Shown here: positions 48,661 through 51,665 of the stretch, one piece after another | Numbering within the stretch: the stretch's first letter is position 1 | Layout of the letters: each line of letters begins with the position of its first letter | Source of the DNA: a virus | Lineage: Duplodnaviria > Caudoviricetes | Virus record (IMG/VR): IMGVR_UViG_3300037471_001740 | Span: 18,940 to 82,939 of that record | Reading direction: 5' to 3' (one strand) | Length of the DNA: 64,000 bases | Notes under the pieces: generated by a model | What the model was told of the DNA's origin: nothing | Databases searched by the model: none | Seen by the model: only the letters and a program-made list of their open reading frames with translations | Made by a program: the position numbers and the translations under genes

Positions 48661-48998
48661 TCGCTTCCTTTCATCCCAAGTTTGTGAAACGCGATTGCGC
48701 GCATGTCGGCAAGGTGTCGCTCGGTCGACGCCAACTGGCCGGCGCTTCCCGCTCCTTCGGTTGGCCTCAGGCCAGTGCGCCAAAGTTCATCGATCAGCAT
48801 CTGTGCGGTGTCGTGACCGAGCACAAGGGCCGGCTCGACGTATTCGCCTTCAGCAGCCTCGACGAACTCAACCTGCCGGGCGGCTGCCGGCTTGTTTCCA
48901 GGCAGCAGACTGCACATCATGCGGATCTCGACCGAACCCCAATGTGTGCGCTGGGCATAGACGTGCATGGTGCCTGCCGCGAAATTGAGGCTCTTCAT
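48657..48998 (-). CDS. Hypothetical phage protein
   Basis: Start reassigned to ATG 48998 (TGATG overlap). Confidence 0.6.
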   Translation of the reverse strand: MKSLNFAAGTMHVYAQRTHWGSVEIRMMCSLLPGNKPAAARQVEFVEAAEGEYVEPALVLGHDTAQMLIDELWRTGLRPTEGAGSAGQLASTERHLADMRAIAFHKLGMKGSE

Positions 48999-49483
48999 CA
49001 GCCGTCCCACCCTTCGCCGACCGGCGCTTCGATGCTCGCATTCAGAGCCGTGGCGATCCGCTCCGCGGTCTCCATATCGAAACACTCGCAGACGATCCCG
49101 AAGGAAATGAAGTTTCCGTCGGCACCCCGAATCTCATCCTTGCGGTCATAGACCGACCCATCGAAGCAGCAATGATTCGAGCCGGAGCCCTTTACCGCGA
49201 AATATCGCGCCCCGCCCAGAAACTCCCTCGGCGGAATGCGCTCTCTACTCACGTCGCCTGCCTCATCGAGCCAGACTCGTTCGATTGCCACGCCATGTAC
49301 TGCGGCGTCGGTTGCTACTGCTTCGAGGTCGGATTTACCGCGCGGACGAATAATCGCGGCAGCGATGCGCTCGGCCGTCTTCATATCGTTTTCTGACAAT
49401 GTTCTTTCGACGATGCCGCGCGCCTCATCCCACAGCTTCGTGCCGATGCTAAGAGCATCTTCGAAGTCAGATTTCCGAGTCAT
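48998..49483 (-). CDS. Hypothetical phage protein
   Basis: MTRKSDFEDAL...; coupled to neighbours. Confidence 0.5.
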   Translation of the reverse strand: MTRKSDFEDALSIGTKLWDEARGIVERTLSENDMKTAERIAAAIIRPRGKSDLEAVATDAAVHGVAIERVWLDEAGDVSRERIPPREFLGGARYFAVKGSGSNHCCFDGSVYDRKDEIRGADGNFISFGIVCECFDMETAERIATALNASIEAPVGEGWDG

Positions 49484-49493
49484 GATCAACCCC

Positions 49494-50096
49494 CTACCGA
49501 ACGGTAACGTCAGGCACGATCGACTCGGGCTTGAACGTGACCGCATAGTGATAAACGCTCACGCTCGACGGCTCGATCTGCTCGACGAAGTACGTCACGT
49601 TGTCCGAGAGGCCGAGGAAATGCTTCTTGTAGCTGTTCGGGCCCGTCTTGCATGTCACTGAAAGCTCGCGGCTCTTATCCGCGTTGCCAAGCGAACACAG
49701 GCCTTCGATCGTCATCAGGTAGCGATCCGTGATTCCATTCACGAAGATAATGCGTCGCTCGATCTGGAAATTGTCGGCAGCCTGCGACAGATTGTGCGAC
49801 GCGACGTCGGCGTCGTTGTTGCAAGCGGCCAAGGGAAGCGCACAAGCCAGCGCCAAAAGCATCTTTCTCATCTGTTGCTTCTCCGGTTTGGCGATCGACC
49901 GAATCACCGCCATGAAGCCCTGCTGCAGGTTCGTCTTGCCTATCGCGAGCCAGCGCTTGTCGACATCAGGAAGCGACTCCAGCGCCTCGAGTTCGACGCG
50001 GATGTCCTCGGCCATGTCCTTGATCGTGTTCATCGACGAAATCTCTTCCGGCGACAGGTCGCGATAGCCTTTGATGTGCTTGTGTTGGTTTTCCAT
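49494..50096 (-). CDS. acb2: Acb2-like cyclic-nucleotide sponge fused in frame to a phage lipoprotein (lipoprotein ATG at 49871)
   Basis: MENQHKHIKGYRDLS..MNTIK..RWLAIGKT..QGFMAVIRSIAKP, then MRKMLLALACALPLAAC lipobox. Confidence 0.8.
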   Translation of the reverse strand: MENQHKHIKGYRDLSPEEISSMNTIKDMAEDIRVELEALESLPDVDKRWLAIGKTNLQQGFMAVIRSIAKPEKQQMRKMLLALACALPLAACNNDADVASHNLSQAADNFQIERRIIFVNGITDRYLMTIEGLCSLGNADKSRELSVTCKTGPNSYKKHFLGLSDNVTYFVEQIEPSSVSVYHYAVTFKPESIVPDVTVR

Positions 50097-50119
50097 GCTT
50101 TCTCCTGTGTGTAGATGGA

Positions 50120-50504: not shown

Positions 50505-51665
50505 TTGGGAAATTCCTAAGATGGCCCTCTCAAAACCCATGGGTTTCCGCTGGGTTATCCAGTGGGTTACCCGTGGGTTTCCCGAATCCTCGCGAACATT
50601 CGCGAGCCCTCCTGCGTTGCACCGCGTCCCCGTGCGTTGCGCCGCGTTGCAGATAAGCGTGCAACGCTGCACCCTTTTCGCTAGCACCCTGCTTGCACAG
50701 TGCTAGCACCTGTCTAGCAAGTGCTTAGCACCTGCTCGCATCTGCTAGTCCCGATCCGGGACACCCTGTCCCGACTTGGGACTAGTCCCGATTAAGGACT
50801 ACTAACGCCTTAACCGTTACCGCACCGTTACCCAACCGTTATCGCCGTGATATCAGCCTGATATCAAGCCTTCACCGAAGGTTTCACCCAAGGTTGGCCC
50901 GAAGGTTATCCTTAAGGCTTCCCCTAACCCTTCACCGAAGGCTTCACCAAAGACATCCTTCGGTGCGGTCGCCGGCGGGAACCGCAGCATGCTTCGGGCA
51001 ATGCTTGGAGCAATGCTCCGAGCATCCGTCACGCTCCCGCCGTGACACCTGTCACGCGTCCGTCCCGTGTCTGTCCCATGGTTGTCCCGCGGGACACGAC
51101 CGGGACATCCGCCGGACACGCCAGCCCTGTCTCTGTGACAGCCGGCGCTTTCTTTACGCCCGCGCTCTGTCTCACGCTCTGTCACAGAACCAGTTACTGA
51201 TTCAGTAACGGTTACTGTTTTGGTAACCGCACAGACTCTGTGCGTAGACGGTGTTGTAGACGCCGGACCGTCTATGCGGCCGTCTCGCTGAAAAAACTGC
51301 TCCCGGGAGCAGTTTTGGTCGACAGGACTTGCTACCAAGGTCGAAAGTCCTTCAGCCTTTGGCCATCCAAGGTGCTTCGAAGGGGCTTCCAAGGCCCTCC
51401 AATGGGGTTGTTGAAATGACAACGGTTGTTGATTCGACAACGGTTGTCGGAATGACAACCCGAGCGGTGCGCTCTGACGGCTGACGCCTCTACCCGGCCA
51501 GGTCTGTTTACCGACGCGTGTCCGCAACGGAGAGGCGTCATGCGTCAGAGGGGTTGCTGAATGAGCAACGGGGGTTGCCGAATCGGCAATTGCTGAATCA
51601 GCAACCCGGCACCGGGTGCCGCCCGCGTGTAATTCGATTACGGGCACGTGGAATCGGATTCCAGC
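50505..51665. repeat. Array of about 25 different iteron-like repeat/dyad cassettes
   Basis: Consecutive distinct motifs phased at 10-12 or 18 bp (see findings). Confidence 0.85.

Follow-up and report, generated by a model that had tools for sequence, protein, structure and literature searches.

Can an immune-nucleotide sponge lead an exported lipoprotein within a single polypeptide? The question is raised by one gene in a 64,000-nt stretch of viral DNA (hereafter the window), in which an Acb2 sponge gene is joined in frame to a VG64-family lipoprotein gene within the early operon of a Paraburkholderia-type prophage. The overall account favoured here, to which a probability of about 0.6 is attached, is that the window copy is a recent, independent and imperfect case of a layout that recurs, with the cytoplasmic sponge serving as the N-terminal portion of the signal peptide of a lipoprotein.

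Organisation of the fusion gene

The gene lies on the minus strand, a point absent from the initial annotation, as do all the parts of the gene described in this section. It is a single open frame encoding 200 aa and two Pfam domains (P0001; 49494..50096, including the TAG at 49494-49496). The start codon, ATG 50096-50094, is preceded by a Shine-Dalgarno sequence, AGGAGA (50101..50106), with a 4-nt spacer (AAGC), and homologues share the MENQH start. Residues 1-72 (49881..50096) read as they were initially quoted and constitute an Acb2-family sponge domain (PF24729) without the terminal [ST]-F of the family. At the junction, as aligned to the unfused relative L004, P71 (CCG) is followed by E72-K73-Q74-Q75 (49872..49886), such that CCG GAG AAG CAA CAG ATG (49886-49869) continues in frame, and with no stop, into MRKMLLALACALPLAAC, just as had been described. 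Residues 76-91 (MRKMLLALACALPLAA; 49824..49871) form a lipoprotein signal peptide with an n-region MRK, an h-region and a lipobox L-A-A-C; within this segment lies the internal ATG (49869-49871) that is the lipoprotein's own start. Cys92 of the lipobox (TGC, 49821..49823) is the predicted site of lipidation and LspA cleavage, and residues 93-200 (49497..49820) comprise the mature, beta-rich lipoprotein domain of the VG64 family (PF25682).

The internal start has a candidate ribosome-binding site, GGAG (49881-49884), or GGAGAAG (49878-49884). The suggestion that this GGAG doubles as the RBS of the lipoprotein fits its position 9 nt ahead of ATG 49871, which is an appropriate RBS distance. With both the lipoprotein's own ATG and a correctly spaced GGAG retained, the two products originally envisaged, a free lipoprotein and the 200-aa fusion, are indeed both possible. 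The flanking genes are tightly packed, a 127-aa ORF ending 23 nt upstream and the next gene beginning 10 nt past the stop. As listed, that downstream ORF (182 aa, window 48998-49546) shares 53 nt with the end of the fusion gene; translation more probably begins at ATG 49483, which follows a GGGGG and lies 10 nt past the fusion stop, and this would give a 161-aa protein of PHROG 19733.

Identity of the two halves

The N-terminal half matches the whole of the Acb2_Tad1_hairpin profile (PF24729; profile 1-58/58, residues 10-70, 63.8 bits against a cut-off of 27, E 1.7e-17). It also matches the solved structures of PaMx33 Acb2 (8h2j_A, E 1.2e-14; 8ixz_A, E 4.4e-14), with residues 1-32 and 47-72 of the fusion aligning to residues 1-32 and 66-91 of the PaMx33 chain. 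The Acb2 identity proposed from the letters alone is thereby confirmed, both by the family profile and by the solved structures. Among the PHROGs, the Acb2 part belongs to family 717 and the lipoprotein part to family 478. Mutagenesis of PaMx33 Acb2 has established that Y11 and K26 bind cGAMP and that R67 and T74 bind cA3 (PMC10312549). These four residues correspond to Y11, K26, R48 and T55 of the fusion, where all are identical, and they are invariant across a 28-sequence alignment; the ligand-site positions that the initial annotation gave were therefore correct. So too was its statement that the known protein is longer in the middle, as PaMx33 Acb2 has approximately 19 more residues there.

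Acb2 of PaMx33 (p26; 8H2J, 8IXZ), JBD67 Acb2 and T4 Vs.4 (PF24729) have the same helical-hairpin sponge domain as the fusion. The activity that characterises Acb2 is that of a hexamer, which sequesters cGAMP and cA3 and blocks CBASS. Known Acb2 proteins and the fusion have in common the MxNQHxxIKGYRDL and RWLAIGKT motifs, the Y11/K26 and R/T pockets, and their status as early-region phage accessory genes. They are distinguished by their C-termini: known Acb2 proteins are free, soluble and 74-94 aa long, ending in P-x-[ST]-F, whereas the fusion lacks the last two residues and the stop and extends for 128 residues more. The constancy of this ending was assessed with 118 distinct relatives of the Acb2 part collected from IMG/VR, species genomes and metagenome contigs, of which 103 terminate no more than three residues from a P-x-[ST]-[FYL] motif. 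The same ending is found in 141 of the best 150 cluster representatives in a full-library profile search (2,945 hits), and the C-terminus of PaMx33 Acb2 is QPDSF. Hence members of the family stop two to three residues past the Pro, in line with the initial annotation, at a point where the fusion reads AKP-E and then K-Q-Q-M-R-K-M; it is not the small stand-alone protein typical of the family. E72 is itself a natural variant, with PETF, PESF and PDSF all found, and therefore only the final [ST]-F and the stop codon are missing from the Acb2 domain. Some variation in the ending exists, in that L038 and L039 finish in L, and the profile match of about 4% of representatives extends no further than position 72. 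A family search of the record revealed no second Acb2 copy in the provirus, so the fusion holds the single copy, and no Tad2 (PF11195) was found in the provirus.

The C-terminal half is a near-complete match to Phage_VG64 (PF25682; profile 5-126/127, residues 76-200, 184 bits against a cut-off of 27, E 7e-55), and is 88-91% identical to stand-alone lipoproteins of 125 aa. This 'beta-sandwich lipoprotein' family, that of mycobacteriophage L5 gp64 (PHROG 478), shares with the fusion the full profile, the lipobox Cys and all invariant core residues; its members normally stand alone at 124-138 aa, whereas the fusion's copy is joined to Acb2. The lipobox Cys is invariant in 36 VG64 homologues, and the LPAM_1 match to the lipoprotein signal is below threshold. 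The signal in the window reads MRKMLLALACALPLAA-C, and lipoboxes are likewise present in the homologues from actinobacterial and Bacillota phages. As VG64 proteins always have a lipobox signal, even in phages of Mycobacterium, Bacillus and Paenibacillus, the C-terminal part is predicted to be exported. An AlphaFold2 model of the VG64 domain has an all-beta core (pLDDT 68), for which Foldseek found no PDB match at E<=0.001. A resemblance to Hfq/Sm-like barrels was considered and rejected, the best VIA-align Z of 4.9 being within noise. There is no NCBIfam match for the domain, and a literature search found no paper naming PF25682.

The conservation of the VG64 mature domain is high for the range of hosts involved. 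Comparison of window positions 49497-49871 with records H1-H30 gives 65-70% identity between the Burkholderiales prophage and phages of Mycobacterium, Paenibacillus, Rhizobium, Acinetobacter and Erwinia, spanning Actinobacteria, Bacillota and Proteobacteria. The mycobacteriophage genes have approximately 69% nucleotide identity and are found even by blastn. The label attached to PHROG 478, 'recombination directionality factor' (RDF), seems unfounded for an exported lipoprotein.

Unfused relatives and the origin of the junction

The closest relative of the locus is a prophage of Paraburkholderia kirstenboschensis (L004/L006/L042) with two separate genes, a 74-aa Acb2 ending AKPTTF-TAA and, after a 41-nt spacer, a 125-aa lipoprotein. 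The respective protein identities to the fusion are 96% and 88%. Gene order and orientation are as in the window, and synteny extends over several kilobases of flanking early genes and an upstream 1-kb non-coding region; the pair differs in having a stop, the spacer and a separate lipoprotein start. Comparison with related prophages, a check that had been suggested at the outset, therefore finds a stop and intervening DNA in the closest of them, and the window lacks the [ST]-F end of Acb2, the stop and most of the spacer.

The P. kirstenboschensis spacer begins CTGCGGAGAA, with CGGAGAA located 5 nt past the stop. If 17 nt are removed from a hypothetical ancestor reading ...CCG ACG ACG TTT TAA CTGCGGAGAAGCAACAG ATG, the window junction is reproduced exactly, and the same deletion would bring the lipoprotein in frame with Acb2. 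For such a PTTF-type ancestor the break would fall at a repeat of CG (2 nt), and only for a PETF-type one would the repeat be CGGAGA (6 nt). Of the 'GGAG microhomology deletion' in the initial annotation, the loss of the stop and spacer is thus upheld by the separate genes of the closest relative; microhomology is consistent with the sequences rather than demonstrated by them. The remaining spacer is 7 nt in the window versus 31 nt in P. kirstenboschensis and differs in sequence, while dS between the two loci is 0.59 for the Acb2 half and about 1.4 for the lipoprotein half, which together imply that the P. kirstenboschensis pair is a cousin of the fusion and not its ancestor. The unequal dS also points to a mosaic history of the two halves. 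Omega against this relative is approximately 0.03 in both, a low value that mostly reflects their history before fusion.

The lipoprotein nearest to that of the window (91% identical), found in the L001 phage, is behind a different upstream gene and also has GGAGAAG, 5 nt before its ATG, indicating that the break sits at the ribosome-binding site of the lipoprotein module. The origin we infer is a recent, lineage-specific short deletion ending at this RBS, of 17 nt if the ancestral spacer resembled that of the relative; module recombination at the same spot could provide an alternative. In a tree of Acb2 domains, the window falls inside a clade with 100/99 support, the other members of which are unfused, and hence the fusion appears both recent and separate. 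No match to the exact junction was found in IMG/VR, and no window-type fusion was detected in any other record of the protein database, IMG/VR, species genomes, metagenome contigs or 401 Burkholderiaceae genomes.

This restriction of the junction to one record would be expected of an assembly or sequencing artefact, the real genome retaining a stop and spacer. Typical platform errors are single-base indels. The window would instead require a multi-base loss in sequence that is neither repetitive nor homopolymeric, one that happened to keep the reading frame clean, the RBS correctly spaced from the ATG and the genes on either side closely packed, making such an error very improbable.

Two further observations were made on the neighbourhood. 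At one related locus (L007, 2501-3655 = L045), the slot of the fusion is occupied by a 74-aa Acb2, a 169-aa Tad2-like DUF2829 protein, so called from a sequence motif, and a VG64 lipoprotein. The position of this putative Tad2-like gene between Acb2 and the lipoprotein suggests that the slot is an anti-defence and accessory islet. Upstream of the fusion, approximately 1 kb (window 50530-51610) is conserved at 73-75% nucleotide identity with two related prophages. It appears to be non-coding, as mismatches lack codon periodicity, indels are many, no ORF is shared and no gene is called there in L004. Repeats crowd the region: GGTTGTTGAAATGACAAC, an 18-nt hairpin unit, occurs three times in tandem, the palindrome TTGCTGAATCAGCAA four times and a 12-nt periodic unit, AAGGnTTCACCn, about eight times, alongside GTCCCG..CGGGAC palindromes, and neither a tRNA nor an Rfam match is present. 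It may serve a regulatory purpose or be an iteron-bearing origin of replication.

Recurrence of Acb2-lipobox fusions

Several unrelated phage lineages contain comparable fusions in which the Acb2 C-terminus is intact, a recurrence unforeseen by the initial annotation. Longer Acb2-domain proteins were searched and fetched loci were scanned, a fusion being classed as seamless where PxxF is followed by 9-13 hydrophobic residues and a lipobox. At least seven further Acb2 groups in metagenomic phages were found to run from an intact ...PxxF directly into a hydrophobic stretch, a lipobox Cys and an exported domain, with neither a stop nor a new Met between Acb2 and the hydrophobic residues. The lipobox in these proteins is [LVIMT]-[ASTG]-[GAS]-C. 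The groups are P0198/P0141/P0143/P0145/P0148 (222-223 aa, with mature parts 53-94% identical), P0282/P0144/P0203/P0299, P0128, P0133/P0147 (Group B, 53% identical), P0131/P0244, L093 and L104. Their mature domains are mutually unrelated between groups, and none has a Pfam or PHROG family.

All seamless fusions checked are in frame in the DNA, and although identity within groups ranges from 41 to 94%, every member is fused. P0282 is present on 14 contigs and P0203 on 19, in each case from several samples. Y11, K26, R and T are nearly all kept, the pocket exceptions being P0148, with H in place of Y11 and A in place of T, and P0198, with L in place of T, where T is the T55 position. Just two Acb2 ORFs from loci fetched regardless of fusion have long C-terminal extensions, L093 and L104, and each carries a lipobox; the other seven extended ORFs had been fetched as fusions. 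Mapping the fused state onto the Acb2 tree requires approximately eight changes (bootstrap range 7-9), at least two of which are forced by well-supported branches, although the short alignment means that the number of fusion origins is only roughly known. A search of the ESM Atlas with P0198 gave a best score of 0.76, which is uninformative.

The seamless fusions (among them P0198, P0282, P0299, P0128, P0133, P0244, L093 and L104) have the same predicted N-in/C-out topology as the window copy. They differ in their full PxxF end, in having no separate Met, n-region or RBS, and in mature domains that are unrelated to VG64. The window copy therefore falls outside the seamless class: it has no [ST]-F, a feature retained in every seamless fusion, and it contains an 8-residue linker, EKQQMRKM, that holds the lipoprotein's own start. 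It does conform to the broader pattern, having in a single ORF an Acb2 domain ahead of a lipobox signal and basic residues preceding the h-region. That the topology recurs and has been maintained in other lineages implies that such a precursor is viable and probably useful.

Cultured phages did not yield the layout when GenBank/INPHARED was searched by tblastn with a single query. Matches in Vibrio phage 1.204.O, Aeromonas phage 25 and Bacillus phage Thrax5 that seemed to run on beyond Acb2 were discarded as read-through artefacts of separate genes. One locus (L081, 380-1950) contains two paralogous Acb2-lipobox fusion genes, of 161 and 204 aa, almost in tandem, with one 144-aa gene between them. 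In P0133/P0147 (L077:494-1348), an in-frame N-terminal extension is observed, downstream of putative start codons, that consists of a TM-like helix and then basic residues; an extra TM helix would put the Acb2 domain of these proteins in a cytoplasmic loop between two membrane segments.

These data also bear on the possibility that the window junction is a recent neutral or damaging deletion, in which loss of [ST]-F and attachment of a hydrophobic export signal have inactivated the sponge, only the lipoprotein initiated at ATG 49871 is still of consequence, and youth of the prophage or weak selection explains the persistence of the fusion. Such an outcome would be in keeping with the uniqueness of the junction among the records searched, the unfused state of the closest relatives, the retention of the internal start and RBS, and a terminal [ST]-F that is near-universal in the family and kept in all seamless fusions. 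It is nevertheless considered somewhat unlikely. None of the four known ligand contacts has been lost and the hairpin profile is covered in full, the E at residue 72 occurs naturally (PETF/PESF/PDSF), a few Acb2 members have other ends (L038/L039 in L), and attachment of a lipoprotein signal to the Acb2 C-terminus is clearly tolerated elsewhere.

Predicted topology and processing

If the window copy is instead an imperfect instance of the recurrent layout, as favoured here, translation from ATG 50096 would generate a 200-aa precursor, in which the Acb2 hairpin would remain cytoplasmic and serve the lipoprotein signal peptide as an n-region of great length. Signals of lipoproteins insert with their N-terminus on the cytoplasmic side. 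A cytoplasmic location for the hairpin is predicted because the basic residues R66, K70, R77 and K78 precede the hydrophobic stretch, in accordance with the positive-inside rule; in the seamless fusions, the basic residues in this position are R66 and K70. Lipoprotein biogenesis proceeds through Sec, Lgt, LspA and Lnt, the Cys being lipidated and the chain cut immediately ahead of it. Sec export of the precursor, lipidation of Cys92 by Lgt and cleavage by LspA would free the mature lipoprotein in the periplasm, and would leave Acb2 at the inner surface of the membrane, bearing a tail of approximately 19 residues of which 12 are hydrophobic. This Acb2 fragment might remain tethered, or later be released by signal-peptide peptidases, and its capacity to bind signals of the cGAMP and cA3 types could be preserved. 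The lipoprotein could also be made alone, by initiation at ATG 49871.

The initial annotation had envisaged a different fate, with an uncleaved signal serving as a permanent TM anchor in a bitopic protein, the sponge inside and VG64 outside. The topology would be identical to that proposed above, and the extra N-terminal TM helix that P0133/P0147 seem to bear, given their putative starts, suggests that tethering itself may be wanted. However, the canonical lipobox with its invariant Cys predicts processing by Lgt and LspA, so that cleavage is more likely, and an h-region of 12 residues is short for a stable TM helix. A permanent anchor is consequently highly unlikely.

The odds that the window copy is still an active sponge are roughly even, as the absence of the terminal [ST]-F may have reduced its activity. 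It is put forward only tentatively that Acb2 acts as a cytoplasmic n-region such that one ORF produces an exported lipoprotein and a membrane-tethered or released sponge, that this arrangement has arisen several times, and that the window contains a fresh example in which the lipoprotein's own start and RBS persist.

Implications for anti-defence proteins

Descriptions of immune-nucleotide sponges portray small oligomers that are free in the cytoplasm, and the fusions known so far pair one sponge with a second, as in Tad2-Acb4 and the Sequestin fusions (bioRxiv 10.1101/2025.07.12.664507). These resemble the window in combining a sponge with a second module in one polypeptide, but both of their modules are cytoplasmic sponges, while the partner in the window is a PF25682 exported lipoprotein. 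No link of Acb2 to a lipoprotein, signal peptide or membrane was found in a literature search. Other combinations of Acb2 were encountered among the proteins collected: P0132 (176 aa, from a JGI metagenome) is composed of a Tad2-like domain (PF11195) and, after it, an Acb2 domain, and is therefore a sponge-sponge fusion, and the Acb2 of P0291 (155 aa) diverges after ...RPT into a Cys-rich, zinc-ribbon-like tail with a weak DUF5817 match, a fusion of non-lipoprotein type.

If the proposed reading is correct, phages would have a new means of locating or co-producing an anti-defence protein, by setting a sponge at the front of a lipoprotein export signal; the sponge could thereby be held at the inner membrane, the site of action of many CBASS and Thoeris effectors. 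The protein would likewise exemplify, for a bacterial virus, a functional signal-peptide domain. The window bears on the need for the conserved terminal [ST]-F in Acb2, and the unfused Paraburkholderia genes form with the fused gene a natural before-and-after pair. The recurrent layout is a more interesting result than the window copy alone.
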